From Spirochaetia bacterium (lineage in GTDB: Bacteria > Spirochaetota > Spirochaetia > SZUA-6 > Bin103): a stretch of DNA of 64,000 nucleotides. The stretch lies in the NCBI GenBank assembly GCA_965203905.1, contig CBDBDQ010000005.1, positions 1,696,001 through 1,760,000 of the forward strand, written 5' to 3'. The notes beneath the pieces were generated by a model. The model ran no database searches. It saw only the letters and a program-made list of their open reading frames with translations, and had not been told where the DNA came from. Position 1 is the first letter of the stretch, and each line of letters begins with the position of its first letter. A program made the translations under genes and the position numbers. Positions 1-15,854 of this stretch are shown in pieces.

Positions 1-384
1 CTTGTACAGATGCGCACAGGTGCGTTCGGGCGGGCAGCCGAGTCCGGTGGCGGCGCGGACGACGATCTGCTCCAGGGTGTCGCGCCATGCGCCGCCCGCA
101 ACGCGCAGCCGGGCCGCGTCGAACTGCCTGCAGGCGCGGACGGAAGGGTCCACCAGCGTCTGCTCGCCGCGGCCGTAGGGTGCCGGGGCCGCCGCGGCGT
201 TCAGCGCGTGCGCCTGCTGCGCGGTGATGGGAAAGGAAAGCGGGCCGACTCCGTCGACTTCCACCAGCGGCATCGGTACGAATAGACGGCCCTGAGCGCA
301 GTAATCGCCCGGCCGGTCGATCGCGCGCAGCAACGCTTCCAGCGGCGCCTGGTCCTCATTGTAGGCAACGTCCACGTCGGCCAT
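1..384 (-). CDS. 2OG-Fe(II) oxygenase family protein, N-terminal part (runs off window start)
   Basis: Not in the ORF track because there is no stop in the window. ATG at 384 with AGGAG upstream; reads MADVDVAYNEDQAPLEALLRAIDRPGDYCAQG...PAPYGRGEQTLVDPSVR...AHLYK, resembling the N-terminus of this family as I recall it. Confidence 0.65.
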   Translation of the reverse strand, partial: MADVDVAYNEDQAPLEALLRAIDRPGDYCAQGRLFVPMPLVEVDGVGPLSFPITAQQAHALNAAAAPAPYGRGEQTLVDPSVRACRQFDAARLRVAGGAWRDTLEQIVVRAATGLGCPPERTCAHLYK

Positions 385-604
385 CGTCAGACTCTCCTCG
401 GATTTCGGATTATCAGTCGGGAACCCGAACGAGGGCAAACGGCGGCGGCCTGACGCCCCCTGACGCCCGCACGGTTCCCGGTGCCGAACGGACCGCCCTG
501 CGAGACCACGGTCAGGCTCTGCGCCGCGCCGCCGCCCGCCACCGCCGCCGGCGCGGCAAAACGGCTCCGAGCGATCGCCGATTCATCGATGTGCATCGCC
601 AACG

Positions 605-2134
605 TCACATGCCCCAGACCGTGACCGGTGCGCCGGCCCCGGGCGGCGCTTCGCGGCGGAAGATCTTCTGCTCCCAGCTTCGCTCCGGGGCGCGGTCGAA
701 CACGATCAGTTGGCCCGCCTCCGCCGCGGACCGATCCACGTAGGCGCGCGTCTGGTCGATTCCCTCCGCGACGATCAGCAGGTCGTTCCGCCCCCGCCCT
801 AGCGCGTACTCGCGCTCGATGCGCCCGCCGCCGTTCACGATGCGCTGCAGGTGCGCCTGCAGCAGCAACTGCGGGCCGGCCTCGTGGTACCGCTCGAAGC
901 GCTGCACCCCCCGCTGCGCGGCCCTTCGGGGCTCGGAGTGCTCCCGGAAGAACGCCTGGAACGCCGCGATCAGCCCCGCCACGTCCAGACCGCCGTCCGC
1001 GTCCACGTACCACGCCATCCGCTGCGGCAGCGTCTCTTGCACCACGTAGTTCAGATGACGCGGCGCCACCTCCGCGTAGATCGGGTTGGCGACGCGCGGC
1101 GGGCCGTGCTGGGCCACCAGGCCCAGGTCGCGGACGTATGTCAGGTCTTCGTCCGAGCACGCGACCTCGTCCGCACCGGTCAGGATCGGTTCGATTACGC
1201 GCCGCACGCGTTCCTCGCGCAACTTGTTCCCCAGGTCGTCGATATGGGTGTCCCGGCGCAGGATCAGCCGCTCTTGCGCCTCCAGGATCGCGTCTGCAGT
1301 GATCGGGCGACCGCGGTCGCGGCCCGGCTTGTGGCGGAAGCAGGCGTCGTAGCACAGCGCGTTCACCAGCCACGGCTGGCCGCCGGTACGAGTCACGATC
1401 AGCTCCAGCGCCCCTTCAGTGAACGCCTGCCCGGTCTGCGCCGTGTGCTGCGCGATCAGGGCGCGGATCTCCTGCTCGGAGAAGTCGCCGAGTCGCAACG
1501 ACTCGGACTTGATGTTGAAGGCGCTGCCTCCGAGCACCAGGCGGTTCTCGGCGGTCGAATAGACGCGGTAGTCGCGCACGTCGCGCACGCCGCACAGGAC
1601 GATGCTGTGCGGGAAGCCGTCCGGGCGTTCGTCGTAGCCGGCGCGAAGCTGCCGCAGAACCGACAGCAGGGTGTCGCCGATCAACGTGTCGATCTCGTCG
1701 ATCAGCAGCACCAGCGGCCTGGGGTCGGCCTCGGCCCAGCGCGCGAGCACTTCGATCAGCGCGCCGTCCGCCCCCTCCTGTTCGAGCGCGGCATGGCGCA
1801 CCCGGTTCGGGGTCTCGTCACCCAACGCCCGGCGTGCCCGGCGCGCGAGTTCGCCGAGCATGGCGCGCATCGCCCGCGTCGTATCCTCGCGTCCGGCCGG
1901 GCCCACCTCGAAGTTGGCGTACACGCAACGCCAGTCGCCCACCTCGCCGGAGTTCAGCAGATCGCGCAGTGCAAGCAGCGCCGACGTCTTGCCGGTCTGG
2001 CGCGGCGCGTGCAGCACGAAGTACCGCTTGTCCCTTACGAGGCCGAACGTCTCGTCGAGATCGATTCGCTCCAGAGGCGGGATGTGGTAGTGGTCCGCCG
2101 CAACGATGGGACCGGCGGTGGCGAACGTGCGCAT
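605..2134 (-). CDS. AAA-like P-loop ATPase (AAA_35-like) with a degenerate C-terminal PD-(D/E)xK-like domain
   Basis: Walker A APRQTGKTS, Walker B LLIDEID; C-terminal RIEREYALGRGRNDLLI. The ExK segment expected after it appears to be missing. Confidence 0.75.
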   Translation of the reverse strand: MRTFATAGPIVAADHYHIPPLERIDLDETFGLVRDKRYFVLHAPRQTGKTSALLALRDLLNSGEVGDWRCVYANFEVGPAGREDTTRAMRAMLGELARRARRALGDETPNRVRHAALEQEGADGALIEVLARWAEADPRPLVLLIDEIDTLIGDTLLSVLRQLRAGYDERPDGFPHSIVLCGVRDVRDYRVYSTAENRLVLGGSAFNIKSESLRLGDFSEQEIRALIAQHTAQTGQAFTEGALELIVTRTGGQPWLVNALCYDACFRHKPGRDRGRPITADAILEAQERLILRRDTHIDDLGNKLREERVRRVIEPILTGADEVACSDEDLTYVRDLGLVAQHGPPRVANPIYAEVAPRHLNYVVQETLPQRMAWYVDADGGLDVAGLIAAFQAFFREHSEPRRAAQRGVQRFERYHEAGPQLLLQAHLQRIVNGGGRIEREYALGRGRNDLLIVAEGIDQTRAYVDRSAAEAGQLIVFDRAPERSWEQKIFRREAPPGAGAPVTVWGM

Positions 2135-2251
2135 GGCGGCTCATTGTCACACGGCGCGGCGCGCCTGTCATCGCGCCGCACAGCACGTAGACTCCCGCGG
2201 TACGGCGACTGCACTCGCGTTGCTCACGGCGCCGGACCGCGCGTCGGACAG

Positions 2252-3790
2252 CTACTCCCGTTCGAACCCCTGGTCCGTGAAGTTGAGCGTACGGCTGTTC
2301 TCGGTGACGGTGCGCACGACGTGATCGGGAGCGCCGTCCGGGATCTCCGCCTGGATCTCCAGCGTGACGGTGACCTGGGCGCCTACCAGCCCGGCGAGAT
2401 GGGCGATCACTTCGTCGGCGATCTGGCTGGCGTCCCGGCCGACGCGGGTGGCGTCGAGGGCAACAGAACCGTGAAAGCGCTTTAGCAGGCGAGTTGGGCG
2501 ACGGACACGTGATCGCCGCGCCAGAGCGGCACACGGTCCAGCTCCATCCGCAAGAGTGTAGCGGCGTAAGCAGTCATGAGCCCGTCCTGCGCCCGCAGCC
2601 GGCGGGACGCGCGAACCGCAAGCGGGTCGGATCCCGTCAGGTTCAAGGGCTCCCACGACACCGCTCCATGCGTATCGGATTGTCCCGGTACCAGCAACCA
2701 CCGGTAGGTCTCGGGAATCCGCGTCGTCACCTCCGTTGCAGCCACATCGCGCTGCGTTTCCGCCTGACGCACCTGTTGCGGGGCGAGATTGAGATGCTCC
2801 TGCTCGCCGATGATCGACTCCCAGGCCAGAAAACGCCTCACCGCCTCGTCGAGCTCCTGGAGGCGGGTGGCGTCGGCGGCGAGAAACAGCAGCGTGTTGC
2901 GGTAGATGCGCGGTGAAGTACCGCGCGACTCCAGAATCGCCTGCGCCTGTTGGAGTGCGGAGCTCTCTCCGCCTCGGCTGTGAGGATACTCGATTCCGAT
3001 TACGACAAGCCGTGCGTCCATGTCGTCGGGCACGTCCTGGCCTGAGTGCGGCAAGGGGTGCACACGGCTGAAGTCTCCTCTCTGGCGCAGGTCGGACCGT
3101 ACCCGTTTGGCGATTTCGAGCACTACGCGGTCCGGATTGCGCCGCATCTGCTCGGCTCGATCTTCCGCCAGCTTGGTGACCGTGGGCTGGGTGGCGAACC
3201 AGTAGCGGGCGTTGTCCTCGTAGAGGTAGGTAGCGCCGGTCGCCAGCCGTCGGAGCGCATCCCCGAACACGGCCGGGGGCTCGGCCGGCATCACACGCAT
3301 CACACAGCCTAGCTTGACACGCCGGTCGTCGATCCCCCGCTGGGCAGCTCCGGTAGTGGGAGCGGAACCGAGGAAAATCGCCCGCGCAACGCGGCGACTG
3401 GCGGCGAACTTTCCCAGGTTCGGCTGGTCGCTGTCGACCCGCAGCGGCAGCGAGTCAGCGCCGTCGACATCTTTTCGATGATCGGCGTCCAGTTGTCGTC
3501 GAGGTACCGGGTCAGCTCCGACTGGATGCGCGCGTCTTCGAGCGCGATGCTGCCCGGCAGGATGAGCGGACTGCGGTCTCCTCGCTCCCATAGGTGATGA
3601 ATCACCGCCGCCATCAGACGCAGCACGCCGCGGGTGCGCTGGAACTTGCCCAGTGCCGACCAGTCGGTGTAGAGCCGATCGAATACCTCGGGATGGATCG
3701 GATAGGCGTCCTTGATCCGTTTTTCGTAGTCGGCCTCACGGCACTCGGCTGGGAACTCCTGCTGCTGCGCGCGGTACAGGTGCAGCGCGG
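2252..3790 (-). pseudogene. DUF499-family AAA+ ATPase, fragmented C-terminal half
   Basis: Three consecutive frames give YPIHPEVFDRLY..FQRTRGVLRLMA, then SRRVARAIFLGSAP..PLWRGDHVSV, then KRFHGSVALDATRVGRDA..RTVTENSRTLNF. Frameshift at the T-run 3472-3475, probable internal deletion near 2490, no N-terminal half. Confidence 0.8.
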
Positions 3791-3931
3791 CAACATCGCC
3801 CCCGTCGACCTCGCTCAGGCCGCCATCGGTCCTGGGATGGCGGTATACAACCGCTACGCCAGGGTGCCCCATGATGCGAGTAAGACGTGCCGGTTTGTTG
3901 GTCAGTTATGCGCCGCCTGATGCCCATGCGG

Positions 3932-4456
3932 TCAACAAGCACGACGCGGCCGCCAGCGTGCCAGCCGTTTGTTCACCTCTGCTCCCGGCAGCCTGCACCG
4001 TGGATGATCGCTGATCGCTTTGAGCGCTGAATATAGCGTATCGTGATCGGTCACCTTGGCCGCCATCATCTCGTCGAGCAGCCACAGGACACCATGACAG
4101 ACGACACCCTCGGACACTGCCAGATTTCGAAGCACACGGTCTCCCGTAAGCAGCATCCAGCGGTTCCCCGTGGCGAGAGCAAGAGCAAAGGTGTCGACGA
4201 GGGACAGCGAGGGTCGCATGCGGCGATACTCGAGCGCGCGGGCAACTCCCTCTCCATCAAGTTCCGCCACCCGGAGCCCCCGCTTGCGCAACTCGGCTCC
4301 GCCGTACGGCCTCAGCTCGCGTTCGTACAGCAGATCGGGGACGATGAACACGATTGGAAGATCGAATACTGCCTCCAGGAGAGAACCGCGGGCCAAGTCC
4401 GTCAGCACGGAAGTATCGGAGACGGAGAGACGGGATTCGTGGTGTTCGGACTGCAA
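3932..4456 (-). CDS. PIN-domain protein (putative RNase toxin, DUF3368-like)
   Basis: VSDTSVLTDL, LSLVDTFALALA, LLTGDRVLR and HGVLWLL motifs; directly downstream of the XRE-ImmA gene; start uncertain. Confidence 0.8.
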   Translation of the reverse strand: MQSEHHESRLSVSDTSVLTDLARGSLLEAVFDLPIVFIVPDLLYERELRPYGGAELRKRGLRVAELDGEGVARALEYRRMRPSLSLVDTFALALATGNRWMLLTGDRVLRNLAVSEGVVCHGVLWLLDEMMAAKVTDHDTLYSALKAISDHPRCRLPGAEVNKRLARWRPRRAC

Positions 4457-4471
4457 TCGATTGGTTGCCTG

Positions 4472-5536
4472 TTACTGCTGTGGGGGTTGCTCCATCCACT
4501 GGTGCAAGTCGCGTACGGACATACCCAGCAGTTCCGCAGCCTTCGCTTCGGAGATCACGTTCTCGGCCAACGCACGAGAGCAGAGGCGTTCAAAGCGTGA
4601 AGGCGACTCCGGTTTGATCGGCTGAGGCTCCCGGTATGGCGGGCTGCGCCAGCCAAACCTCGATATGTCACGAAACAGCCGCGTGTAGAGGACGTCGTTG
4701 ATGATACCGAGATCCCGGCAGCGATATACGATTGCCTGCACACTCACCCCGAACACCCGCTTCAGGTTGAACAGTTCGCTCCAGCCAATGGACGTGCGCC
4801 GTCTGCCGATCTCGGTGCGCACGGCATCCGCCGGCATGAGGAACGCTCCCGCGAACCGCTGAGCCGCCTTCTCCGAATCGACCTTGTCGTCAACCGTCAG
4901 AACCAAATGCCCCAGCTCGTGCGTGAGCGTGAACCGCTGGCGTTCTCCTGAGTGATTGCGGTTTACAACTATGACCGCATCGATCGCCTTGTTCCCGCGC
5001 CGTACGTATGCGGTCAACCCTCCGATATCGCTCAGCTCCAAAGCGAGCACCTTGATTCCGCACTCCTCCAGGAGTTCGACCACGCTCAGGATCGGCTTGC
5101 GTCCGAGATCCCAGTGGGTACGCAGGCTGATGGCCGCTTGCTCCACCTCAGACAGGTCGGCAACCACCGGATACGGCGCCTCACGTGGCTTGTCCCACTC
5201 CACGCTCGGCAGCGACAGGAGTCCCTCAACCGAGATATACCGCTCCAGGAGATCTATAACTCTCGCCTGAACAATAGTTTGCTCGCGCTTTCTCGTGATT
5301 GACTTCTTGCGGAACTCGACGGCCTCAAGCACCAAGTCCTGCTCGCTGGTCAGGTACTCGACGGACACTCCCAGGGCTTTGGCCAGCGCGATGAGCACGC
5401 CAGATCCCGGGATCGACTCGTTGCGCTCGTACTTGCCAATCGCTTGAGCCGTCACCCGACCGCCGATTCGCCCCTCCAGGGCGCGCAAGGACAGGCCGGC
5501 AGCAGACCGGGCCAGCTTCAGCCTAGTACCGATCAC
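4472..5536 (-). CDS. XRE-family HTH fused to ImmA/IrrE zinc metallopeptidase
   Basis: N-terminal RLKLARSAAGLSLRAL..AIGKYERN HTH; RQRFTLTHELGH HExxH motif; EKAAQRFAGAFLMP. GTG at 5536 with GGAGGG upstream. Confidence 0.9.
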   Translation of the reverse strand: MIGTRLKLARSAAGLSLRALEGRIGGRVTAQAIGKYERNESIPGSGVLIALAKALGVSVEYLTSEQDLVLEAVEFRKKSITRKREQTIVQARVIDLLERYISVEGLLSLPSVEWDKPREAPYPVVADLSEVEQAAISLRTHWDLGRKPILSVVELLEECGIKVLALELSDIGGLTAYVRRGNKAIDAVIVVNRNHSGERQRFTLTHELGHLVLTVDDKVDSEKAAQRFAGAFLMPADAVRTEIGRRRTSIGWSELFNLKRVFGVSVQAIVYRCRDLGIINDVLYTRLFRDISRFGWRSPPYREPQPIKPESPSRFERLCSRALAENVISEAKAAELLGMSVRDLHQWMEQPPQQ

Positions 5537-5573
5537 GACTGCACCCTCCCCATCTCGGACGCGGTTGTATTGC

Positions 5574-5608
5574 TTGACAAGAATCACGCATGCATGATAG
5601 TATGTAAA
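5574..5608. promoter_or_regulatory. Overlapping divergent sigma70-type promoters around a palindromic candidate operator
   Basis: Plus strand TTGACA (5574-5579), 18 nt, TAGTAT preceded by TG (extended -10); minus strand TTTACA; central 14/16 palindrome ATCACGCATGCATGAT (5583-5598). Confidence 0.65.
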
Positions 5609-5684
5609 CCAAATTAAATCGCCGTCCAGGGCAACGGCACACCGCATGCTGCGGGACGGGAGTCATTTGAAGAGAGGTACACAG

Positions 5685-7025
5685 ATGCGACTACACATGA
5701 ATGCCCCAGGGGCGCGCACCCCGCTGGCGACGCCGCCCGCGACAAGGGTAAACCACAACCCGCAGAATATCGACAGCAACGCACGGTACCAAGCGAATCC
5801 GCTTGACCTCCTGCTCGCCGACATCGCAATCCGCATCCAGCTTAGCCGCACGGACTACGCCAGGGCCGTCCAGCGGTACGAGAGCGTCAGTCAGTGGATC
5901 GAACGGGACAGGAGCCTGCTGCACGGCCTTGTCGAGCTGTTCTGCGCACAAGGGTCGATGGCCATCGGTGCGACGATTGCGGCGAGGGGCACCGACGAGT
6001 TCGACATCGACGTCGTGGTGCAGTTGCTATTGGCGGGCAACGTCTCGCCAGAGACTCCCCTGGACGTGCTGTATGAGGCGATCAGGGGAGAGCCGGGATC
6101 CCGGTACTATCGGATGACAAAGCGACGAACTCGTTGCGTGACTGTCGAATACGAGGATGGCATGCACATCGACTTCACACCGGCGGTTCGCCGCTGGGGC
6201 ACGCCGGACCGCGAAAGCTGGATCTTCCATCATCGGCCAGAAGCGCCTGACGAGCCATCAAGGCGGCTCGTCGCCAACCCGTACGGCTTCGCCGAATGGT
6301 ACACCGAGTGCACACCGCCGGATGGCCCATTTGTCGACTTTTACATGCAACGGGCCGACTCGTACGAACGAGCCTTGCTGAAAATCGAGGCGGATGCTGA
6401 GCCGGTGCCGCCTCAGCAACCAGCGCTCAAGAAGTCGAATGCCACTATTGCCTTGCAGCTCGTGAAGCGTTGGCGCAACGTACAATACGAATCGCGGTCA
6501 GGCCGACGCCCGCCGTCGATCATGATTGCGAAACTCGTTGCCGATGCAGCGAATCGAACGGATGGACTTGGAGAGGAACTGCTGATTCAGGCTGAGCACC
6601 TGTTAGCGAAGTTCCAAGCGGCCCAAAACCGAAACACCCTTGTCAGCATCGTCAATCCTGTGTGTCATCAAGATGTTCTGACCGATCGCTGGCCAGCAAC
6701 TCTTGCCGAGCAAGCAATATTCGTCAAGGATCTGACCGATTTGGTCGCCAAGCTCAAGAGACTGCATAGCGGGTGTGATCTCGGTGAGATGAAGAAGATA
6801 ATGGCAGGGCTATTCGGCGAGGCCCCCACGGAGCGCGTGTTCTCAGACTTCAACGATCGTATCGGCTCTACCGTAATCGATGGAAGTCGCCATATCCGAA
6901 GGACAGGCGGTCTGGCCGTACCGCTGAGACCAGCAAACGGAACTGGAGCTGCTGCGGCCGTAGCTGTTGCGTCCGCAAGAACCCCCAAACACACGTTCTA
7001 TGGTAATGAGGCTAACCACTTCTGA
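5685..7025 (+). CDS. cGAS/DncV-like nucleotidyltransferase (CBASS CD-NTase, SMODS family)
   Basis: QGSMAIGATI..DEFDIDVV catalytic motif, MHIDFTPA third acidic residue, ANPYGFAEWY, QLVKRWRN; flexible tail ending HTFYG+NEANHF. GAGAGG SD before ATG 5685. Confidence 0.9.
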   Translation: MRLHMNAPGARTPLATPPATRVNHNPQNIDSNARYQANPLDLLLADIAIRIQLSRTDYARAVQRYESVSQWIERDRSLLHGLVELFCAQGSMAIGATIAARGTDEFDIDVVVQLLLAGNVSPETPLDVLYEAIRGEPGSRYYRMTKRRTRCVTVEYEDGMHIDFTPAVRRWGTPDRESWIFHHRPEAPDEPSRRLVANPYGFAEWYTECTPPDGPFVDFYMQRADSYERALLKIEADAEPVPPQQPALKKSNATIALQLVKRWRNVQYESRSGRRPPSIMIAKLVADAANRTDGLGEELLIQAEHLLAKFQAAQNRNTLVSIVNPVCHQDVLTDRWPATLAEQAIFVKDLTDLVAKLKRLHSGCDLGEMKKIMAGLFGEAPTERVFSDFNDRIGSTVIDGSRHIRRTGGLAVPLRPANGTGAAAAVAVASARTPKHTFYGNEANHF

Positions 7026-7461
7026 TGCCATGAATGTTCACCGCGACAAAAAGCTGATGCTCAGAACGTGGCCCGGTTTTCGGGTCTTGACCAGTACGAG
7101 CAGGCTCGTCCACTGGCGCGGCGAGCTTCAACCACTATGCCAGATCTACTCCGTTGAGATACGTCACCGCATTGGACGGCGACCTGGGTCTGCGTCTACC
7201 ACTCCGCAAGTGACGGTCGTGCAGCCACAATTGCGTCGTAGGGAAGAAGAACCGCACAAACCAATTCCCCATCACTACGCAAACAAGGAGAGTCCAGAAC
7301 TACCGTTTCTCTGTCTCTTTGATCCGGACACAACAGAGTGGAATCCGAGTATGCCGATCGCGACTACGATCGTACCTTGGACGATTGATTGGCTGGCTTG
7401 CTATGAGGGGTGGCTCGCTACTGGTGTTTGGACGGGGGGCGGTCGAGCACATGATGCGTAG
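7006..7461 (+). CDS. Prokaryotic E2 (UBC-fold) protein of type II short CBASS
   Basis: WRGELQP, PIPHHY, LCLFDP (candidate catalytic Cys), EWNPSMPIATTIVPW..WL..YEGWLATG.W.GG; overlaps the CD-NTase stop; start could also be 7030. Confidence 0.8.
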   Translation: MRLTTSDAMNVHRDKKLMLRTWPGFRVLTSTSRLVHWRGELQPLCQIYSVEIRHRIGRRPGSASTTPQVTVVQPQLRRREEEPHKPIPHHYANKESPELPFLCLFDPDTTEWNPSMPIATTIVPWTIDWLACYEGWLATGVWTGGGRAHDA

Positions 7462-8536
7462 CCTTGGACCGGTAGCCAATAGCAGCGACGAACACATACC
7501 GAGGAAGCGTTCTTCAGGTACGCTTCAACGTCGACGTATCCTCCTTTCTTGGCCTGAGGGGCGTGCATTCCGAATTCTGTCCATCGACGGAGGCGGCATC
7601 CGCGGCATCTTTCCTGCCGCGTTTCTCGCTGGATTGGAGCGGCGATGGCTGGGATCCGACTCAATATCGAGATATTTCGATCTGATCGTAGGGACCTCTA
7701 CAGGCGGTATAATTGCTCTGGGACTCGCGTCAGGCTATACGGCTGCGGAACTCTGTCGTCTATATGTCGAACGCGGATGTGAGATATTTCCACCGATTCC
7801 CAACAATTGGTTCGGTGACCTGACGCGGGACTGGCGGAGGTTCTTCCAGTTATTCAAGGTCCGCTATGACCGAAAGTCGCTTGTCCGCATTCTGCGTGAG
7901 CTGTTCGGAACGCGGAAGTTCGGAGACACCAATACGCGTCTTTGCATACCATCCTTCGACGGCCGCCACGGCGAGCCGTACATATTCAAGACACCGCATC
8001 ACCCCGATTACCGCCTGGATCGCCATGAATCAACGGTGAAGGTAGCCGCAGCCACGGCCGCCGCCCCGACCTACTATGCCCCTATGGAAGACCGAGGCTA
8101 CAGGTTCATTGATGGAGGGGTCTGGGCCAATAACCCCGTCATGATAGCGCTTGTGGACGCACTGTCGTGCTTCGACGTTCCGCGCGAGCGGGTCCGCATA
8201 CTCAGTTTGGGCTGCGGCAACCGCCCTTATACCGTCGGCAAGGTAAAGGCCAAGATGGGGGGGGCTTTCGCTTGGTATGACATCATGTACGGAGCGATGC
8301 GCCTGCAGTCGCACAACGCGATAGGACAAGCAGGCCTACTGGTTAGCCGAGACGGGATTATTCGTGTGGACGCACCAGCAGACGCGCATCGAATCGCACT
8401 CGACGACTGGTCTCGCGCAGTTACGACGCTCCCGCACGCTGCCGAGGAGTCGCTGGAGAAGTACGGAAGCCAGGTCGAATCCGGGTTTCTGCAGGGACCG
8501 GCTGCTGATTACCGACCGGTTCCCGTGGCAGTGTAA
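7451..8536 (+). CDS. Patatin-like phospholipase, CBASS effector (CapV-like)
   Basis: DGGGIRG, GTSTG nucleophile elbow, AAPTYY, DGGVWANNP; overlaps the E2 stop. Confidence 0.9.
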   Translation: MMRSLGPVANSSDEHIPRKRSSGTLQRRRILLSWPEGRAFRILSIDGGGIRGIFPAAFLAGLERRWLGSDSISRYFDLIVGTSTGGIIALGLASGYTAAELCRLYVERGCEIFPPIPNNWFGDLTRDWRRFFQLFKVRYDRKSLVRILRELFGTRKFGDTNTRLCIPSFDGRHGEPYIFKTPHHPDYRLDRHESTVKVAAATAAAPTYYAPMEDRGYRFIDGGVWANNPVMIALVDALSCFDVPRERVRILSLGCGNRPYTVGKVKAKMGGAFAWYDIMYGAMRLQSHNAIGQAGLLVSRDGIIRVDAPADAHRIALDDWSRAVTTLPHAAEESLEKYGSQVESGFLQGPAADYRPVPVAV

Positions 8537-8683
8537 ACGTGCTGCCGGCCCGCACGCCCGCCGTTGGCTGAATCTCCCCGACCACCGAGCGACTCATCCG
8601 TTGTCAATGCCACGTCTACCGGTGTAGGTTACAATCTGTGCGTTACAACTATGGCGTAAAGCGGCACGTCAGGGACGGTTCAT

Positions 8684-9454
8684 ATGGGCTACAAATCCGA
8701 CATTGAGTGGACTGATGCTACCTGGAACCCCGTAACGGGTTGCACCAAAGTATCACGTGGATGTGACAATTGTTACGCAGAGCGCTTGGCAGAACGATTC
8801 CGTGGTACACGCGGACATCCATACGAGTATGGGTTCGATCTGAAGTTGCGTCCGGAACGGTTGTCCCAACCACTTTCATGGAAACGCTCTCGGAGAATAT
8901 TCGTAAATTCGATGAGCGATCTGTTTCACAAAGAGATACCACCAGAATTCCTCGATCGCATTTTCGAGGTCATGGAGGCGGCCGACTGGCACACGTTCCA
9001 AGTGCTCACAAAGCGCAGCTCAATCATGAGGCGCTATCTGACACGGCGATACAAGGGAATGGTAGCTCCACGACACATCTGGTTCGGTGTCTCCGTCGAA
9101 GAACACTTGGTAACCACAAGAATCAAACACCTTCAGGCGACACCTGCCACAATTCGTTTCCTTTCCATTGAGCCGCTTATCGGTCCCGTCGGAGATATTG
9201 AACTTGACGGAATCTCATGGGTCATTGTCGGTGGCGAAAGCGGTCCTAATGCGCGACCAATGAAAGAGCAATGGGTTCTCGACATAAAGGACAACTGTGA
9301 ACGGAATGGGGTTCATTTCTTCTTCAAACAGTGGGGTGGATCCACACCGAAGTCCGGTGGACGCCGACTTCAGGACACGGAATATAACGCCATGCCAGTT
9401 CTTGAGACGAACCTGCCCAAACGGAGGGTTCATGCAATTCAGTTGGCATCCTGA
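8684..9454 (+). CDS. DUF5131 / phage Gp37-Gp68 family protein (three-Cys motif)
   Basis: IEWTDATWNPVTGCTKVSRGCDNCYAE, FVNSMSDLFH, WVIVGGESG, FFFKQWGG. Confidence 0.9.
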   Translation: MGYKSDIEWTDATWNPVTGCTKVSRGCDNCYAERLAERFRGTRGHPYEYGFDLKLRPERLSQPLSWKRSRRIFVNSMSDLFHKEIPPEFLDRIFEVMEAADWHTFQVLTKRSSIMRRYLTRRYKGMVAPRHIWFGVSVEEHLVTTRIKHLQATPATIRFLSIEPLIGPVGDIELDGISWVIVGGESGPNARPMKEQWVLDIKDNCERNGVHFFFKQWGGSTPKSGGRRLQDTEYNAMPVLETNLPKRRVHAIQLAS

Positions 9455-9566
9455 CGAGCCACCGCCGCAGATCGAAGCACATAGCAAGGCAAAGCTGGGT
9501 CGTTATCGCGACTGCTTGCGGCGGAAGGCGGTCGACCGAATCGTTGTGTGCAGCGGGAGGGATTAA
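9432..9566 (+). pseudogene. tcmP: Three-Cys-motif partner protein remnant (44 codons)
   Basis: GGAGG+ATG overlapping the DUF5131 end; MQFSWHPDEPPPQIEAHSKAKL resembles a TcmP N-terminus, and TcmP is the usual DUF5131 partner; far too short to be intact. Confidence 0.6.
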
Positions 9567-10071
9567 CAGGGTGGCTCGGCGCGGGCGAGGAGGTCCTTGA
9601 AGGAGTAGTTGACGCTGTTGGCGCCGAAGTCCGGTTCTCGGCGGAAGGGCCAGCGAATGTAGTGGACCCGGTGGCTGTCGCCGTCAAGGAATTCGACGAT
9701 CGCCAGGCGGTAGTCGTCCGGCTTGTTCAGCGAGTAGAGGATCTCGTTGCGGGTGACGGTGATGGTGTCGGCGTCGTGGACGCGGCCCTTGACCTCGATG
9801 AAACGCAGGCGGCCGGTGCCGGGGACGCCTCGGACACCAGCCGAAACAGCTCCCCGTCGCCGTCGAAGCTCCAAGGCCGCCCCTGCTCGACCACCTCCAG
9901 GCGCGCTTCGTCGTCGCGGTAGAGGATCTCGCTGCCCAACTCGCCGCCCGCCCCGCGGTAGGTGAGTTCCAGCGCGTCGGACCCGAACCAGTGCACACTC
10001 ACCACCGTGACCAGGGCGTCGGTCAGAATGCGACGGACGGACGCGGTAGCTTGCAGGTCTTCCAGCTTCAC
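9563..10071 (-). pseudogene. SNF2-type helicase with C-terminal DUF3883, internally deleted
   Basis: N-terminus (V)KLEDLQ..WFGSDALELTY..GRPWSFDGDGELFRLVSEA is joined out of frame at ~9827 to C-terminus VPGTGRLRFIEVKGR..TVTRNEILYSLNKPDDYRLAIV; helicase core absent. Confidence 0.8.
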
Positions 10072-10097
10072 GCCGGCGATGATAACAGACCCCCGCA

Positions 10098-10133
10098 GCG
10101 ACACATGTCGGTGTCGAGTACGAACGAGGTCAG
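10098..10133 (-). pseudogene. VapC/PIN toxin N-terminal remnant
   Basis: Overlapping the antitoxin stop: CTG ACC TCG TTC GTA CTC GAC ACC GAC = (M)TSFVLDTD, the typical PIN start, then homology is lost. Confidence 0.5.
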
Positions 10134-10429
10134 GCTCCTTCTTGGCTATTGTCGACGATCCGTCTGTTGTCGCTGATCGCCTGCTGCCACTCGTCGAAGA
10201 GCGGGTCGTCTCGGAACATCCCGAATATCTGATGCCAGGGATTGGAGCCGCCGGGCAGGTCGAGTGCTGCTATGCGCCCCCCCTGTGCCATCCGTTCGAG
10301 TATCCCGTGCCTCATCTTGGCCAATGCGGCTTCCGGCGTGTCGGCTTCCACGGCGGTCGCGAACGGTTCGCCACCCGTGGCACGGAATCGATGGTCGTCG
10401 GTGGCCTCTATCAGAATAGGAATCTTCAC
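10130..10429 (-). CDS. Small HicB-like/antitoxin-type protein
   Basis: (V)KIPILIEA..AVEADTPEAALAKM..NPWHQIFGMFRDDPLFDEW, 99 aa; followed by a PIN-like remnant. Confidence 0.6.
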   Translation of the reverse strand: MKIPILIEATDDHRFRATGGEPFATAVEADTPEAALAKMRHGILERMAQGGRIAALDLPGGSNPWHQIFGMFRDDPLFDEWQQAISDNRRIVDNSQEGA

Positions 10430-10612
10430 CGGCTCATCTCCGCGGCTCGTGACCCTCGTTGAGATTGTGCGATTATTCGTAACAGGTACAGGAGTGTGGC
10501 CACCGGTGCCACCGGTGCCGCCGGGCCGGCGCCAGTGATTCCAGTGCGCCGCGCATGTCGTGGGGCGACCCTGGCACGAAGCGTACGCGGGACCAAACGG
10601 AGGCACCTCGGC

Positions 10613-12121
10613 TCATGGGTGCGCGGCGGGTTCCGGGGGCTGGGGCAGGGCGCCCCGCGGGGGTTGATAGTTGGAGGACGGGGCTTCGCATACCGGGCAG
10701 CGCCAGCCGGAGGGCAGGGCTGCGAACGGGGTGCCGGGTGCCACCTGCCCCAACGGGTCACCGTACGCGGGGTCGTACTCGTTGCCGCAGGCGGCGCACG
10801 ACCGGGTTCCGGAGCGCTCCTCGACCGGCGCCTCCGGCGGCGCCGCGGGGGGCGGCGGCTCATCGTCGTCGCGGTAGAAGCGGCGCGTCAGGGCTGCAAG
10901 GGAGGCCGCCAGATCGCGCTCGCGCAGCCGGCGGGCGAAGGTCAGCCAACCGGGATTGCGCCGGTCGAAACCCTCCCGATGGCGCACGGCGTAACGGCGG
11001 CGCAGGCGGGCGAAGGGCAACCGCTCGTCGATGAGGGGCTGGATCGCCACCGCCACCTCGTGCCGGGTCGGGTCGTCGGTCACCGCGAAACTGAGGCCCG
11101 AGGTCACGATGGAGCGGCGCGACAGACGGGCGATCATGGTGCCGGCCAAGTCCCGTGCCTCGGGCAGGCGATCGCAGACCTGCCAGTGGAGGGCGGCGTC
11201 CACGTGGCGCACCCGCACCCCGTGGCGGCCGAGCAGCATACGCCACTCCGCGAGGTGCTCCGGTGCCACGTTCTTCAATACCAACGAGCGCCAGCAGGTG
11301 GTGAACACCGCGCCGATGCCCTGCTGCGCGGCGCGCATGCACAACTGCTCCAGGAACCGGTGCCGGAACGGCTGCGTGCCGGCGCTCAAGCCGATCCAGT
11401 ACCCGGAACCGGAGTGCATCGGATGTACGCCTTCGTAGTCGCCGTACTCCGACGGCGGCAGGCGTTGACCCGCCTCCGCCGGCACCAGCCTGCTCCCCAG
11501 GCGGCCGCGGATCGCGTGCGCCAGGTCCTCCGAAGAGTGCGATGCCTCGGCTCCGGCGGCGGCGAGCGTGTCCTCGGCCGCCCGTACCGCCTCGGCCACG
11601 TACTCCGACGGCACCAGGTAGGGAAGCGTTACGCGGTCGTGGCGGCCGGGCGCACGGGGGCCGCGCCGCGGGTGGTGGTCGGCGGCGATGGCGATACGCC
11701 ACGAGTCGATCTCGTCCGCCGCCAGGAAGTTGAGCAGGCCCGAGGTCAGCGGCAGCAGATCCTGGTGCGGATCGGCGACGTTGATCGCGAATGACGGGCG
11801 GGACCGGAGGCCGCTCAGGATCGACTGGATGATGCCGGCGTCCAGCCAGGGCACGCCGCGGGTGATGCCGCACGCCGCGGCTGAACTGGTGACGTTGGGA
11901 TGGCCGGATGCGTCCGCCCGCTCCACCGCCAGCGGCGCCACGGCGGCACGGAAGCGGGTGACGTACGAATCCGGGATGCCGGCTACGAGCAGGTCTTGCC
12001 GATGGCCGATGGTCAGCCGGTCGCTGCCCCAGGCGCCGGAGAGTTCCGCGACCGTGCGCAGCGCCCCGGTGCCGATGATCCCGCCGGGGCACGCCACGCG
12101 CAGATCCACGCGCCCGTTCAT
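10613..12121 (-). CDS. Nitrite/sulfite reductase-like half-domain protein with C-terminal rubredoxin
   Basis: C-terminal CAACGNEYDPAYGD..PGTPFAALPSGWRCPVC rubredoxin; N-terminal PGGII..LTIGHRQDL ferredoxin-like repeat; ATGA overlap with the nitrate reductase stop. Confidence 0.75.
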   Translation of the reverse strand: MNGRVDLRVACPGGIIGTGALRTVAELSGAWGSDRLTIGHRQDLLVAGIPDSYVTRFRAAVAPLAVERADASGHPNVTSSAAACGITRGVPWLDAGIIQSILSGLRSRPSFAINVADPHQDLLPLTSGLLNFLAADEIDSWRIAIAADHHPRRGPRAPGRHDRVTLPYLVPSEYVAEAVRAAEDTLAAAGAEASHSSEDLAHAIRGRLGSRLVPAEAGQRLPPSEYGDYEGVHPMHSGSGYWIGLSAGTQPFRHRFLEQLCMRAAQQGIGAVFTTCWRSLVLKNVAPEHLAEWRMLLGRHGVRVRHVDAALHWQVCDRLPEARDLAGTMIARLSRRSIVTSGLSFAVTDDPTRHEVAVAIQPLIDERLPFARLRRRYAVRHREGFDRRNPGWLTFARRLRERDLAASLAALTRRFYRDDDEPPPPAAPPEAPVEERSGTRSCAACGNEYDPAYGDPLGQVAPGTPFAALPSGWRCPVCEAPSSNYQPPRGALPQPPEPAAHP

Positions 12122-15100
12122 GCCAGGGCCTCCTCGTGCCGCGCCACCGGCGCCCCCCGCGGCTGCTCGTCGAGCGTGGACACCGTCTCTGCCGTCGCAG
12201 CCGGCTCGGCACACGATGAATCGGGCGACTCAGGCGCGGCAGCGCCGGCGCTTCCCGGTGGCCCGGTCAGCGCCGGTAGCGTGGCGGTCGGGCTCACCGC
12301 CGCCGCCGCCGGTCCACCCAGCTTCGGCGGCGAAGTTCCCGTGTCGGCGGATTCTGCGAGGACCGCGGCCACCTCGGGACGGCAGGTGCCGCAGCCGGTG
12401 CCGGCGCGGGTGGCGGCGCACAGTTCCGGCAGGGTGGCGCTGCCGGCCGCCACCGCCGCGCGCAGGTCGCCGGCGCCGACGCCGTGGCAGGAGCACACCA
12501 GGCGGCCGCGCGGGGTGCCGGGCAGCCCCGCCGCCGCGGGCCGCAGGAGCTGTTCGCGCTGCTCGTCCAGTTCGGAGCCGGTCTCGATCAGCCGCCGGAA
12601 CGCGGCGAACTCCGCGTTGTCGCCGATCAGCACCGCTCCCACCAGGCGGTCGTGGCGCACCACGCACTTCTTGTAGTAGCCCATGCGCCGGTCGAGCAGA
12701 GTCACCTCCTCGAAGCCGTCACCCGCGCCCTCCCCCGCGCCGGGGGCGGTGAGGCCGACCGTGGATACGGAGGTGCCGGGAATCTTCAGCACGTTGTAGG
12801 GGGGCGCATCGGCATACGCCGCCCACTCGTCGCCGGTGACGTGGCGGGCGGCCACCCGCGCCTGTTCCTGCGCGTGCTCGGTGGTGCCGTAGAGACGGCC
12901 GTTGTGCTCGGCGACATCGCCCAGGGCGTAGATCTTCGGATCGCTGGTCTGCAGGTGGGAGTTGACCACCAGTGCACGCCGCGTGTGCAGCCCGGCGGCG
13001 GTGCCGAGTTCACGGTTCGGAGCCGTGCCGACGGCTACCAGCAACAGGTCGCAGTCCAGGAGCAGGCCGCCCTCGGTGCGCACGCCGCTGACGCGCGGGG
13101 TGCCCGTGAAACTGGCCACGCGGTCGTTGAACACCAGCCGTACGCCGCGTTCGATCAGGGCGTCGCGCAGCACCTCGCTGCCGGTGGCGTCGAGCTGCCG
13201 GCCGAGCAGCAGGGACCGGTTCTGCATCACCGTCACCGCCGCCACCTGCCCGGCCAGGGCGGCGGCGAGCTCCAGCCCGAGCAGCCCGCCGCCCACGATC
13301 AGCACCCGCGAGCCGGCGCTCACCAGAGCCATCGCCGCGTGCGCGTCCTCCCGGTTGCGCAGGGTCACCACGCCCTCGCGTTGCGCCGGCAGGTCGGGCA
13401 GGCGGCGGGCGCGGCTGCCGGTGGCCAGCACCAGCCGGTCGTAGCGGTATTCCCGGCCGTTCGCGGCCCGCACGCAGTGCCGGTCGCGGTCGATGGCCGT
13501 CACCGGGGTGCCGGGATGCAGGTCCAGGTCCAGGTCGGCGAGTTCCTCGGGCGTGGTCAACTGCAGCTCCGGCCAGCGCCGCCGGCCGGCCAGGTACTCG
13601 ACCAGCAGCACGCGGTTGTAGAACAGCTCGCGCTCGGCGCTGAACACCCGGATCCGGTCGTGCCGGTTGTGCGCGCGATACTCGCGCACGAACGCCAGCG
13701 CCGCCGGTCCCGCGCCCACCACGCACACCTGCCGCGGCGTCGTGGCCAGCGGCCGGACCGCGACGGCGGTGTACTTGAAGTCGGGCTCCATGGAACGGGG
13801 ATCGACGCGCGGGCTGGTCACGTTGTTGGCGCGCCCCGAGTCCCCGCGCGGGGTATCGGTGCGGCCCCAGTGCATCGGCACGAACACCACCCCCGGCTTG
13901 ATCGCGTCCGACAGCCGCGCCGGCACCCGTATCGCCCCGTACCGGCTGGCGATCTCCACGGTACGGCCTTCCCGCACGCCCAGGCGGGCGGCGTCGTCCG
14001 GGTGCAGTTCGGCGAACGGGCGCCGCTCGTGCTGGCCGAGCCTGGCCACCTTGCCGGTGCGGGTCATGGTGTGCCACTGGTCGCGCAGGCGGCCGGTGGT
14101 GAGCACGAACGGAAAGTCCGCGCACGGCGGCTCGCCGGGATCCTGCTCCGCAACCGCGTGCAGCCGGGCGCGGCCGCTGGCGGTGGCGAAGCGCCGATCG
14201 GTGAACAGCCGCTCGGTACCGGGATGGTCGGCGGCGGGACACGGCCACTGGATGCTGCCGAGCTGCAGCCGGGGGTAGTCGATCCCCGTCATGTCGAGCG
14301 CCGTGCCGGCGGTGAGCCGGGTGTGCTCGGCGAAGATCTCCGCTTCCGAACGGTAGGCGAACGCCTCCTCCCAACCCATGCGGCGGGCAAAGTCGCACAG
14401 GATCCACACGTCGGGCCGCGCCTCGCCCGGCGGCTCCACCACCTTGGGCAGGTGGGTCACGCGGCGCTCCGAGTTGGTCATGGTGCCCTGCTTCTCCAGC
14501 CAGCCGGCGGCCGGCAGCACCACGTCGGCCCAGGGCAGCGAGTGAGAGCGGGAGGAGATGTCCTGCACCACCACGAAGCGGGCGCGTCCGAGCGCCGCCT
14601 CGGCGCGGCGCACGTCGGGCATGCTTACCACCGGGTTGGTGCATATGATCCAGATCGCCTTGAGCGTGCCCGCCTCCAGGGCGCTGAACATCTCGGTGGC
14701 GGTCAGACCCGGCCTGGCCGGCACCTGCTCCACCCCCCACAGCGCAGCCACCGCGCGCCGGTGCGCCGGGTTGGCGAGGTCGCGGTGCGCCGGCAGCATG
14801 GTGGCCAGCCCGCCTACCTCGCGCCCGCCCATGGCATTGGGCTGGCCGGTGAGGGAGAAGGGACCGGAGCCGGGCTTGCCGATCTGGCCAGTCAGCAGCG
14901 ACAGGTTCAGCAGCGCCAGGTTCTTGTCGACGCCGGCGGCGCTCTGGTTCAGGCCCATCGCCCACAGCGACAGGAAGGTGGGCGCGGAGCCGATCATCTC
15001 TGCGGCCCGCTCCAGGTCGGCGCGTGCCACCCCGCACGTCGCCGCGGCCAGGTCCAGGTCGACGCCGGCGAGCTGGCGCGCCACCTCGTCCCAGCCCTCG

Positions 15101-15846
15101 GTGTGGCGCTCCAGGAACGGGCGGTCGACGAAGCCCCCGTCCAGCAGGCAGCGGGCCAGCGCCAGGTAGCAGGCGACATCGCTGCCGGGATTGATCTGCA
15201 GGTGCAGGTCGGCTATGGAGCAGCTCTGGGTGCGGCGCGGGTCGACTACGATCACCCGTGTCTCCGGGTCGCTCTGCCGGCGCGCCTCGATGCGCTGGAA
15301 CAGGATCGGGTGGCACCAGGCCGGGTTGGCGCCGGCGATCAGGAAGCAGCTCGCGCGCTCGATGTCGGCGTAGGCGATCGGCACGCTGTCCTCGCCCAGG
15401 GCCAGCTTGTAGGCGGTGACCGCGGTGCTCATGCACAGCCGCGAGTTGGTGTCGATGTTGTTGCTGCCGATGAAGCCCTTCATCAGCTTGTTGGCGACGT
15501 AGTACTCCTCGGTGAGGAGCTGGCCGGAGACGTAGAACGCCACCGACTCGGGGCCGTGGCGGTCGATCAGGGCGCGAAAGGTGGCGGCGACCCGGTCCAG
15601 GGCGCGGTCCCAGGTGGTGCGCGTCAGCGGTTGCGCGCGGCTGCCGCGCAGCAGCGGATACCGCAGGCGGTCGTCGGTGTCGGCGACCGTGTGATGCAGG
15701 TTGAGTCCCTTGGCGCACAGCCGGCCCCGGTTGGCCGGGTGCGCGGCGTCGCCGCGCAGGGTCAGGCGGCCGTTGCCGTGGCGGGTGACCTCGATGCCGC
15801 AGCCCACGCCGCAGTACGAGCAGGTGGTCTTGAAGCTGCGATCCAC
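12118..15846 (-). CDS. nasA: Assimilatory nitrate reductase (molybdopterin) fused to NAD(P)H/FAD oxidoreductase and BFD-like 2Fe-2S domain
   Basis: CSYCGVGC..GRLCAKG Fe4S4 motif, NNIDTNSRLCM, GQPNAMGGRE, LTTGRLRDQWHTMTRTG; then VVGAGPAA, IVGGGLLGLE and CSCHGV..GTGCGTC. GTG at 15846 chosen as start. Confidence 0.9.
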   Translation of the reverse strand: MDRSFKTTCSYCGVGCGIEVTRHGNGRLTLRGDAAHPANRGRLCAKGLNLHHTVADTDDRLRYPLLRGSRAQPLTRTTWDRALDRVAATFRALIDRHGPESVAFYVSGQLLTEEYYVANKLMKGFIGSNNIDTNSRLCMSTAVTAYKLALGEDSVPIAYADIERASCFLIAGANPAWCHPILFQRIEARRQSDPETRVIVVDPRRTQSCSIADLHLQINPGSDVACYLALARCLLDGGFVDRPFLERHTEGWDEVARQLAGVDLDLAAATCGVARADLERAAEMIGSAPTFLSLWAMGLNQSAAGVDKNLALLNLSLLTGQIGKPGSGPFSLTGQPNAMGGREVGGLATMLPAHRDLANPAHRRAVAALWGVEQVPARPGLTATEMFSALEAGTLKAIWIICTNPVVSMPDVRRAEAALGRARFVVVQDISSRSHSLPWADVVLPAAGWLEKQGTMTNSERRVTHLPKVVEPPGEARPDVWILCDFARRMGWEEAFAYRSEAEIFAEHTRLTAGTALDMTGIDYPRLQLGSIQWPCPAADHPGTERLFTDRRFATASGRARLHAVAEQDPGEPPCADFPFVLTTGRLRDQWHTMTRTGKVARLGQHERRPFAELHPDDAARLGVREGRTVEIASRYGAIRVPARLSDAIKPGVVFVPMHWGRTDTPRGDSGRANNVTSPRVDPRSMEPDFKYTAVAVRPLATTPRQVCVVGAGPAALAFVREYRAHNRHDRIRVFSAERELFYNRVLLVEYLAGRRRWPELQLTTPEELADLDLDLHPGTPVTAIDRDRHCVRAANGREYRYDRLVLATGSRARRLPDLPAQREGVVTLRNREDAHAAMALVSAGSRVLIVGGGLLGLELAAALAGQVAAVTVMQNRSLLLGRQLDATGSEVLRDALIERGVRLVFNDRVASFTGTPRVSGVRTEGGLLLDCDLLLVAVGTAPNRELGTAAGLHTRRALVVNSHLQTSDPKIYALGDVAEHNGRLYGTTEHAQEQARVAARHVTGDEWAAYADAPPYNVLKIPGTSVSTVGLTAPGAGEGAGDGFEEVTLLDRRMGYYKKCVVRHDRLVGAVLIGDNAEFAAFRRLIETGSELDEQREQLLRPAAAGLPGTPRGRLVCSCHGVGAGDLRAAVAAGSATLPELCAATRAGTGCGTCRPEVAAVLAESADTGTSPPKLGGPAAAAVSPTATLPALTGPPGSAGAAAPESPDSSCAEPAATAETVSTLDEQPRGAPVARHEEALA

Positions 15847-15854
15847 GGCTGCCT

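Follow-up and report, generated by a model that had tools for sequence, protein, structure and literature searches.

How abortive-infection systems stay silent and yet remain inducible is an active question. It is raised by a locus in a 64,000-nucleotide stretch of DNA from a Spirochaetia bacterium (GenBank assembly GCA_965203905.1, contig CBDBDQ010000005.1, positions 1,696,001 to 1,760,000), the whole of which is referred to below as the window. The operon of a CBASS (an anti-phage signalling system based on cyclic oligonucleotides) stands there back-to-back with a two-gene front end, which is portable and encodes a protein that unites a helix-turn-helix (HTH) domain with a zinc peptidase (hereafter the fusion) and a PIN-domain nuclease. 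This arrangement is real and widespread. Does the fusion regulate CBASS, neutralize the nuclease, or both? Judging by analogy with the CapH/CapP and VapBC52 systems, we consider it probable that one self-cleaving protein serves both as the repressor of the two divergent promoters and as the antitoxin of the PIN RNase. The locus is an intact, compact example, in which a single protein could couple the transcriptional priming of CBASS to the release of a second, independent toxin.

The fusion protein and its cleavage-like motif

An earlier note on this DNA had described the HTH and the peptidase as one polypeptide, with the PIN gene next to it. Both domains indeed reside in a single open reading frame (ORF) of 354 codons (positions 4472-5536, minus strand), and the PIN gene follows 15 nt after its stop codon. 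The longest ORF at this place is larger (4472-5647, minus strand, 391 aa), and GTG 5536 is most likely the true start, because it is preceded, 7 nt upstream, by GGAGGG and because all profile alignments begin near residue 38-41 of the long ORF. The fusion is matched by the Pfam models HTH_3 (2.8e-11) and Peptidase_M78 (1.4e-19, with the motif HELGH). It comprises an XRE-type HTH (approximately residues 1-65), a linker strand with F75-R76-K77, an M78/IrrE-type zinc peptidase (H206-E207-xx-H210, E222) and a C-terminal helical tail. Structures in the PDB that match its AlphaFold model (predicted local distance difference test, pLDDT, 91.1) are Thauera CapP (7t5t, the top match), IrrE (3dti) and PprI (8sln) for the peptidase fold, and P22 c2, 434, ImmR and SinR for the HTH, the latter at a root-mean-square deviation of approximately 1 Å.

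H206, E207, H210 and E222 are invariant across 42 aligned fusion sequences. The HTH is also strongly conserved, with R10, G14, Y36 and E37 invariant and A32, I33 and K35 retained in at least 90% of the sequences, which fits a half-site common to the fusions. Ten residues after the HTH there is a cleavage-like motif, composed of an aromatic residue (42 of 42 sequences; F in 32, Y in nine, W in one), an R (42 of 42) and a K (38 of 42), and in the model this segment forms a beta-strand (residues 68-77). CapH is cut between F82 and R83 (bioRxiv 10.64898/2026.05.16.725639), while VapB52, which self-cleaves with single-stranded DNA (ssDNA), has its FR motif at F75-R76 (PMC13273310). Judged by its sequence, the fusion carries a CapH-type Phe-Arg cleavage motif together with an intact HExxH...E.

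In PADLOC the best match of the fusion is RmrA, the antitoxin of the RosmerTA system (PDLC03949, 8.1e-55; residues 41-385 of the long ORF against positions 5-333 of 363 in the profile), and all 14 RmrA profiles listed match it; the scores for capP and capH are 1e-18 and 1e-3. The NCBIfam model of the spr1629-family repressor/antitoxin is matched below its cut-off (6e-30).

The PIN protein and its predicted complex with the fusion

The second gene of the front end (3932-4456, minus strand; 174 aa from TTG 4456) encodes a PIN-domain (VapC-like) nuclease, a putative toxin. Its Pfam PIN match lies below the cut-off (7e-4); there is no match to any PADLOC family at E <= 0.01, hence none to an RmrT profile, and no sequence match in the PDB at E <= 1. 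Its AlphaFold model (pLDDT 95.6) is matched in Foldseek by the PIN/VapC structures 1y82, 3h87, 7by2 and 5h4g. E47 is invariant across 32 homologs, and D14, D20, D88 and D106 are each retained in at least 90% of them.

The two proteins were modelled together as a 1:1 complex with both alignments, in three runs and with three controls. With a median over the runs of 0.81 in ipSAE (an interface score), the predicted complex stands far above the best control, at 0.01; 116 of 157 solved complexes attained that mark of 0.81, as did two of 215 mismatched pairs. The runs have at least 89% of their contacts in common, with a partner pLDDT of at least 85. On the side of the fusion the modelled interface is formed by residues 41-49 and 59-65 of the HTH domain and 323-342 of the C-terminal helices, and on the side of the PIN protein by residues 14-16, 40-47, 65-90 and 106-108, which take in D14, E47, D88 and D106. 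The model supports, but does not demonstrate, binding of the fusion to the PIN protein, with the active site covered; part of the score may stem from resemblance to toxin-antitoxin complexes already solved.

These data bear on the role of the nuclease. CBASS might be regulated by the fusion in the manner of CapH-CapP, with the PIN protein acting not as a toxin but as an accessory (for example a transcript-shaping RNase, co-sensor or co-repressor). Partners that have lost acidic residues are still retained in three of the loci surveyed below (L025, L029 and L022), and with an interface that involves the HTH, as predicted, the PIN protein could modulate DNA binding. Such an accessory role nevertheless seems improbable to us in view of the conservation of the four acidic residues in the 32 sequences, the tiny gaps to, or overlaps with, the upstream gene, which are typical of toxin-antitoxin pairs, and the covering of the active site in the model. 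Moreover, the analogous VapC52 is a tRNA-cleaving toxin (PMC13273310).

The control region and a candidate operator

The start codons of the fusion and of the divergent CBASS cyclase gene are separated by 148 bp (5537-5684), in agreement with the approximately 150 bp given earlier; this region was examined by its sequence and by alignment with three orthologous cassettes. Overlapping promoters and a palindrome had been proposed to lie here. The CBASS-side site is present as a sigma-70-like promoter candidate matching the consensus (5574-5603, plus strand; TTGACA-N18-TAGTAT, with TG before the -10 element). A consensus scan of the 6.1-kb region yielded four sites against 2.1 +/- 1.5 in shuffled sequences, so this match is weak on its own. 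The same scan called no promoter on the minus strand, where TTTACA (5608-5603), pointing to the fusion gene, suggests one.

The palindrome, ATCACGCATGCATGAT (5583-5598; seven of eight pairs), is also present, but was rejected as the operator. Of 5000 dinucleotide shuffles of the 148 bp, 227 contained an equal or better one (19 of 5000 in a post hoc comparison within the 23-nt spacer in which it lies), so that it exceeds chance only modestly, and the three orthologous cassettes have not conserved it. A likelier operator is the conserved inverted repeat that flanks it, CTTGACA(5573-5579)-N23-TGTAAAC(5603-5609), spanning 5573-5609. In the orientation of the fusion gene this repeat reads GTTTACA-N23-TGTCAAG and ends 36 nt before GTG 5536. 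Its fusion-distal arm is perfect and yields the TTTACA -35-like hexamer on the strand directed toward the fusion gene, and its proximal arm contains TTGACA, the -35-like hexamer of the promoter on the CBASS side. The TGTAAAC arm is invariant in the alignment of four family cassettes (that of the window and the three orthologous ones) and is also an arm of GTTTACA-N23-TGTAAAC in L020 and L021, two of the loci surveyed below.

When the 200 nt upstream of 42 fusion genes were searched with a spacing of 21-24 nt and at most three mismatches, the inverted repeat GTTTACA-N21-24-TGTAAAC was found before 39 of them, in 21 cases in perfect form; no such repeat was present in the 200 nt upstream of the fusion in L033, L045 and L007. 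The exact repeat occurs in 23 of the 107 loci examined for it, once in each, always just before the start of the fusion and nowhere else in those loci. A relaxed form, GTTTACA-N21-24-TGTNAA, has two matches in the 8-Mb genome that harbours the window, one before the window fusion and the other before its PIN-linked paralog. Since a reversed control pattern has three matches in this genome, only the positions of the matches carry weight, not their number. The repeat is kept in front of pairs that face no divergent gene, and it is therefore an autoregulatory element at the least; that it also serves to control the divergent promoter is plausible. A full-text literature search for the two half-site words was uninformative, returning only primers and unrelated motifs.

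In L024, L027, L038, L041, L044 and the window the spacers of the repeat (22-23 nt) are AT-rich and, judged by eye, often contain short palindromes of their own, which differ in sequence between loci; the significance of such a palindrome was computed for the window alone.

Distribution of the front end and of the operons that it faces

A scan by pattern and tblastn, performed with one genome per species, identified 80 loci, among which 39 contain a fusion 35-62% identical to that of the window and 41 a more distant one. The closer loci span Acidobacteriota, Chloroflexota, Cyanobacteriota, Gemmatimonadota, Nitrospirota and many Pseudomonadota. A PIN homolog is encoded directly downstream of the fusion in 32 of these 39, as opposed to none of the 41 distant loci. 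It is full-length in 28 cases and truncated, or cut by the end of the contig, in four, and three of the seven loci with no PIN match have too little downstream sequence to judge. The gap between the fusion and PIN genes ranges from -56 to +17 nt, with one gap of 113 nt.

A tblastn search of the 80 loci with the CBASS proteins of the window detected, beside homologs of at least 35% identity, only the CBASS of L021 and a weak CD-NTase match in L013; in addition, L061, which carries a distant homolog, has a CD-NTase match approximately 7 kb downstream. A profile scan was needed to reveal CBASS of other types. The four nearest upstream ORFs (140 ORFs from 37 of the closer loci, the remaining two having no upstream sequence) were compared with PADLOC, and those left were then compared with Pfam. 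A divergent CBASS faces the fusion in six loci: L010 (TRIP13, cyclase, TIR-SAVED), L013 (TGT, cyclase, nucleosidase-type effector, second cyclase), L017 (a lone cyclase on a short contig), L020 (TRIP13-HORMA-cyclase-NucC), L021 (patatin-cyclase, with E2 found by tblastn) and L044 (TRIP13-HORMA-HORMA-cyclase). Bub-type operons (DUF6791-ThiF E1, Prok-E2_E/Multiubiquitin, DUF6527) face it in three (L015, L019 and L025), and genes for PD-(D/E)XK nucleases in L024 and L029. Several loci face uncharacterised proteins, and others adjoin clearly unrelated genes (aconitase, Dus, VIT1, Lnt, TetR or a serine recombinase). The homologs are strongly associated with CBASS (six of 39 loci, besides the window and three cassettes of its own family), and the lack of enrichment that the earlier note had named as part of a refutation was not seen. 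The head-to-head arrangement is conserved, not accidental.

In a maximum-likelihood tree of 42 fusions all ten CBASS-linked and four Bub-linked rows fall, interleaved, into one clade of 30 rows. Within the tree, L020 and L021 are separated by short branches (0.019 and 0.005), their fusion proteins being near-identical, and at the DNA level, too, the two are almost the same throughout the control region and for approximately eight codons past the first divergent ATG of L020. Their cargo differs, being a TRIP13-HORMA-NucC CBASS in one case and a patatin-E2 CBASS in the other. This comparison gives the clearest sign of modularity: since the two loci share the control region but not the cargo, the control region travels with the front end. 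In L021 approximately 100 nt (within 9640-10060 of the L020/L021 region) lie between the conserved first ATG, which corresponds to the TRIP13 ATG of L020, and the patatin ORF; this stretch looks like a stub from the replacement of one CBASS type behind the same front end.

We tentatively propose, as a possibility falling somewhat short of probable, that the PIN protein, the fusion and GTTTACA-N22/23-TGTAAAC constitute one mobile sensor-toxin front end, which may occur free-standing as a toxin-antitoxin pair and may have been placed repeatedly before unrelated immune operons (CBASS, Bub, nuclease).

The cassette in related bacteria and in the same genome

The family to which the bacterium belongs is represented in our genome library by 24 genomes of two genera. 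Three of the 23 others carry the whole five-gene cassette, with the PIN-fusion pair facing CD-NTase-E2-patatin, and in these the fusion (77-79% identical to that of the window) is more conserved than the CD-NTase (60-70%). For the other CBASS operons of the family no fusion was found within the 14-15 kb fetched. In the genome G009 a second copy of the fusion, 63% identical to that of the window (L099, 3811-4818), lies approximately 1.2 kb beyond the patatin gene of the cassette.

The genome that harbours the window contains a second CBASS on another contig (L102; contig C3, 106 kb), in which patatin precedes CD-NTase; its patatin is 37% and its cyclase 24-27% identical to the window counterpart, and no match to the fusion or the PIN protein was found in the 15 kb fetched. 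Two further fusion paralogs are present, both on contig C5. That of L008 (8784-12782; at approximately 2.47 Mb), 42% identical to the window fusion, is preceded by the repeat and followed by a PIN paralog (37% identity). It faces, across approximately 780 bp and in a separate low-GC patch, a 543-aa ThiF/E1-like protein, for which no DUF6527 or E2 partner was found among the ORFs scanned. The other (L007, 2621-11630; at approximately 0.9 Mb; 45% identity) is followed by a 399-aa uncharacterised protein instead of PIN; an SMC/AAA_23-like ATPase, a histidine-kinase-type ATPase and a response-regulator/TCAD9 protein adjoin this locus.

CBASS repressor or self-contained pair

The distribution described above may also be read in another way. 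The PIN protein and the fusion could be a self-contained RosmerTA- or VapBC52-like toxin-antitoxin (or abortive-infection) pair that autoregulates only itself and stands beside CBASS through the clustering and joint transfer of defence genes, exerting no control over its transcription. The match to RmrA over the full length of the fusion, the complex predicted with the PIN protein, the constant fusion-proximal position of the operator and its retention by many homologous pairs beside housekeeping genes are all consistent with this explanation. It is harder to reconcile with the divergent CBASS or Bub operons of nine of the 39 loci, to which the window, the three family cassettes and one paralog add five more, with the common control region that extends in L020 and L021 up to the first divergent gene in front of different cargo, or with the window operator, one arm of which is the -35-like hexamer of the CBASS-side promoter. 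In addition, published CapH/CapP pairs hold the same position and regulate the operon (Lau et al. 2022, bioRxiv 10.1101/2022.04.27.489752). We consider a pair with no part in CBASS control unlikely, though far from negligible.

Several observations weigh against the fusion being a joint repressor and antitoxin. With regard to the operator, the proximal arm of the window repeat has two mismatches (TGTCAAG). In general, the repeat is fusion-proximal, ending 1-43 nt before the start of the fusion (120 nt in the paralog L008), while by our reckoning it is 66-230 nt away from the first gene of the facing immune operon (730 nt in L013). With regard to distribution, a 12-row clade of the tree has no immune-linked member, its neighbours including aconitase, Dus, VIT1 and Lnt genes; moreover, the CBASS association is not clade-specific, requiring at least three changes on the tree, a value matched by 145 of 500 label shuffles. 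Since the module is found with no recognisable immune operon, it may basically function on its own, as a toxin-antitoxin or defence pair, and autoregulation would then suffice to explain the operator. With regard to the proteins, no Cys occurs between H210 and E222 in the three same-genome paralogs aligned, so a cysteine switch is absent, and only approximately 80 residues follow the peptidase (the Foldseek alignment with CapP 7t5t covers 174 columns), apparently too few for the HTH+GAF module of CapP. Because of the missing switch and the short tail, sensing of ssDNA is not assured. The similarity to the probable VapB52 chain 9vzy_A is weak and confined to the peptidase region (E 0.003). To these points are added the loss of acidic residues in some PIN partners and a decayed cassette (G020, L097), whose PIN gene is split across two frames and whose CD-NTase match contains two stop codons (one TAG, one TAA).

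The CBASS operon and the surrounding island

The genes named in the earlier note were all found at their places, with some starts refined. The five are tightly packed in a low-GC island (4000-9500, 52-62% GC) within a window of approximately 65-77% GC. The first gene of the CBASS arm (5685-7025, plus strand) encodes a CD-NTase, the cyclase, of 446 aa (Pfam SMODS 4e-10; PADLOC PDLC00800 4e-148), whose translation shows the nucleotidyltransferase motifs GS...DxD. It is followed by a stand-alone E2-like protein of Cap2-short type (approximately 7003-7461, plus strand; PADLOC E2 PDLC00877 1e-47; no family matched in Pfam or NCBIfam scans) and by a patatin-like phospholipase effector (approximately 7451-8536, plus strand; Pfam Patatin 3e-29; PADLOC effector 3e-110; NCBIfam CBASS_lipase 5e-73, above cut-off) with intact GGGIRG, GTSTG and DGG motifs. 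The E2 ORF overlaps the stop codon of the CD-NTase gene, and the patatin ORF that of E2.

With a CD-NTase, a stand-alone E2 and a phospholipase effector in one overlapping operon, the system has the features of type II-short (E2-only) CBASS, a class that is said to go back to work of Millman and colleagues in 2020. It is called E2-only because no ORF in 7025-8536 other than E2 and patatin matches a CBASS model; likewise, no E1-E2 or JAB match was found among the ORFs scanned with PADLOC. In itself this CBASS showed no unusual feature.

The cassette abuts a broken hmaC, which in the Hma defence system encodes the DUF499 ATPase. The remains lie at 2261-3872 and 9563-9874 (both minus strand), their pieces matching profile positions 860-940, 413-739 and 310-413 in different frames, with the first approximately 309 positions missing; across the island from them there is a 103-aa NOV_C (DUF3883) fragment. 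Possibly an older defence locus received the low-GC CBASS island as an insertion or lost a part to it by deletion. Just beyond the hmaC fragments there is a 509-aa ATPase of AAA_22/AAA_16 type (605-2134, minus strand) with no PADLOC match. The lowest-GC stretch (52-54%) contains an intact gene for a DUF5131 protein (8684-9454, plus strand; 2e-95; PADLOC candidates PDC-M30B/M41B, 1e-103), which has its own promoter-like site (8607-8635), is no part of the cassette in the three related genomes and for which no partner gene was identified in 9455-10600. No tRNA was found in 1-16000, nor were convincing direct repeats found to flank the island.

Such surroundings could mean that the defence island is degraded and the cassette no more than a passenger in it, decaying and without function. 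Besides the broken hmaC that it abuts, decay is evident in relatives: in G020, as described above, and in G006 (L103, 5837-6807), in which only 220 residues from the C-terminus of the fusion are left (90% identity), next to a C-terminal CD-NTase fragment and a scrap of E2 at the end of a contig. Yet the five ORFs of the window are intact, with their catalytic motifs and overlapping stop/start junctions, and the 77-79% identity of the fusion is maintained across two genera, which leaves this explanation very improbable.

Relation to known systems

According to the preprint of Lau et al. (2022, bioRxiv 10.1101/2022.04.27.489752), CapH represses a CBASS operon and is cut by the ssDNA-activated peptidase CapP. 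The same source mentions 15 CBASS systems with an apparent capH-capP fusion, which is the minority form, as well as a Nocardia DISARM operon with a vapC-like gene and a fusion-like protein. CapH and CapP are also encoded at 168 of 544 Bub operons (PMC11601596), and a cysteine-switch loop occluding the active site is reported for 33% of CapP. The locus described here resembles CapH/CapP in having an XRE HTH and an IrrE/M78 peptidase, in its position upstream of, and divergent from, an immune operon and in the aromatic-Arg site after the HTH. It differs in that HTH and peptidase form one polypeptide, in the lack of a cysteine switch and, apparently, of room for the full HTH+GAF C-terminus of CapP, in being nearer by profile score to RmrA (8e-55) than to capP or capH, and in the constant PIN gene partner of its subfamily. 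The fusion thus has most features expected of a CapH/CapP member, the exceptions being the two separate proteins and the cysteine switch.

The second analogue, VapBC52 of M. tuberculosis (Rv2514c/Rv2515c), consists (NAR 2026, PMC13273310) of VapB52, an HTH plus IrrE-type peptidase that neutralises the PIN toxin VapC52 and undergoes ssDNA-triggered self-cleavage at its FR motif; the stoichiometry reported there is 1:2. Common to both pairs are an Xre-peptidase antitoxin, in the window a putative one, and a PIN fold with four conserved acidic residues. In sequence they are distant, as 9vzy_A is matched only at the E value given above and the window PIN protein has no PDB sequence match. VapC52 is compared there with DUF4411-type PIN proteins, whereas the window PIN protein weakly matches the generic Pfam model; VapB52 has a cysteine switch and the window fusion has none; and the accessible text mentions no divergent immune operon for VapBC52. 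The fusion-PIN pair is analogous to VapBC52 but only distantly related to it.

RosmerTA (RmrT/RmrA) is a two-gene defence system (Millman et al. 2022, preprint 10.1101/2022.05.11.491447), and in NetFlax the ImmA/Rosmer antitoxin hub pairs with varied toxins (PMC10440598). The window fusion shares with RmrA the combination of an HTH and a zinc peptidase. In contrast, the window PIN protein matches no RmrT model, for which reason PADLOC would not call RosmerTA here, and RosmerTA is not described as a regulator of a neighbouring operon.

Damage-activated M78 peptidases that cleave an XRE repressor and thereby de-repress genes also operate in ImmR/ImmA of ICEBs1 and in DdrO/IrrE (PprI) of Deinococcus. 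These differ from the present system in consisting of two proteins with no toxin partner and in their cargo, which is a mobile element or a repair regulon.

The earlier note had not recognised this form as characterised. Its parts are nevertheless in print, namely CapH-CapP fusions at CBASS and a vapC-like neighbour in 2022, a self-cleaving PIN antitoxin in 2026 and the RmrA profile, so that the concept is already published. Not found in the literature searched were the near-constant PIN partnership of this fusion subfamily, the control region that travels with the pair while cargo swaps, and the sharply defined operator candidate conserved across phyla; preprint supplementary tables may hold some of these. 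As regards the switch that had been proposed, the conserved arrangement, the CBASS association, the CapH-type motif and the predicted PIN binding all stand, while the claimed novelty and the palindrome operator do not.

A proposed mechanism and its significance

The gene content, the conservation of the cassette, of the operator-like repeat and of the motifs, and the predicted complex are what this study shows. They can be combined into a model, for which CapH/CapP and VapBC52 serve as the analogues from which we infer that the fusion binds DNA and is cleaved, that the PIN protein is toxic and that the system is inducible. The five-gene cassette, with its CBASS arm divergent from the two-gene front end, would have been acquired horizontally. 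In the resting cell the HTH of the fusion would bind CTTGACA-N23-TGTAAAC (5573-5609) and, as the bound repeat overlaps the putative -35 elements of both divergent promoters, expression of CBASS and of the operon of the fusion itself would be kept low. At the same time the HTH-proximal surface and the C-terminal helices of the fusion would cover the active site of the PIN protein and hold it inactive. Phage- or damage-derived ssDNA would activate the M78/IrrE-type peptidase, which would then cut its own linker at F75|R76, the position at which CapP cuts CapH. Separation of the HTH from the remainder would de-repress CBASS, and splitting of the two-part PIN-binding surface would free the RNase toxin. 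It is because this single cut would both detach the HTH and separate the two halves of the interface that we favour a repressor and an antitoxin united in one protein.

If the pair and its control region are indeed a mobile sensor-toxin front end, one act of self-cleavage would both turn on the cargo operon and set the RNase free. The antitoxin of a toxin-antitoxin pair would then also be the repressor through which a separate immune system senses damage, and an operator would be defined for a whole class of immune regulators.

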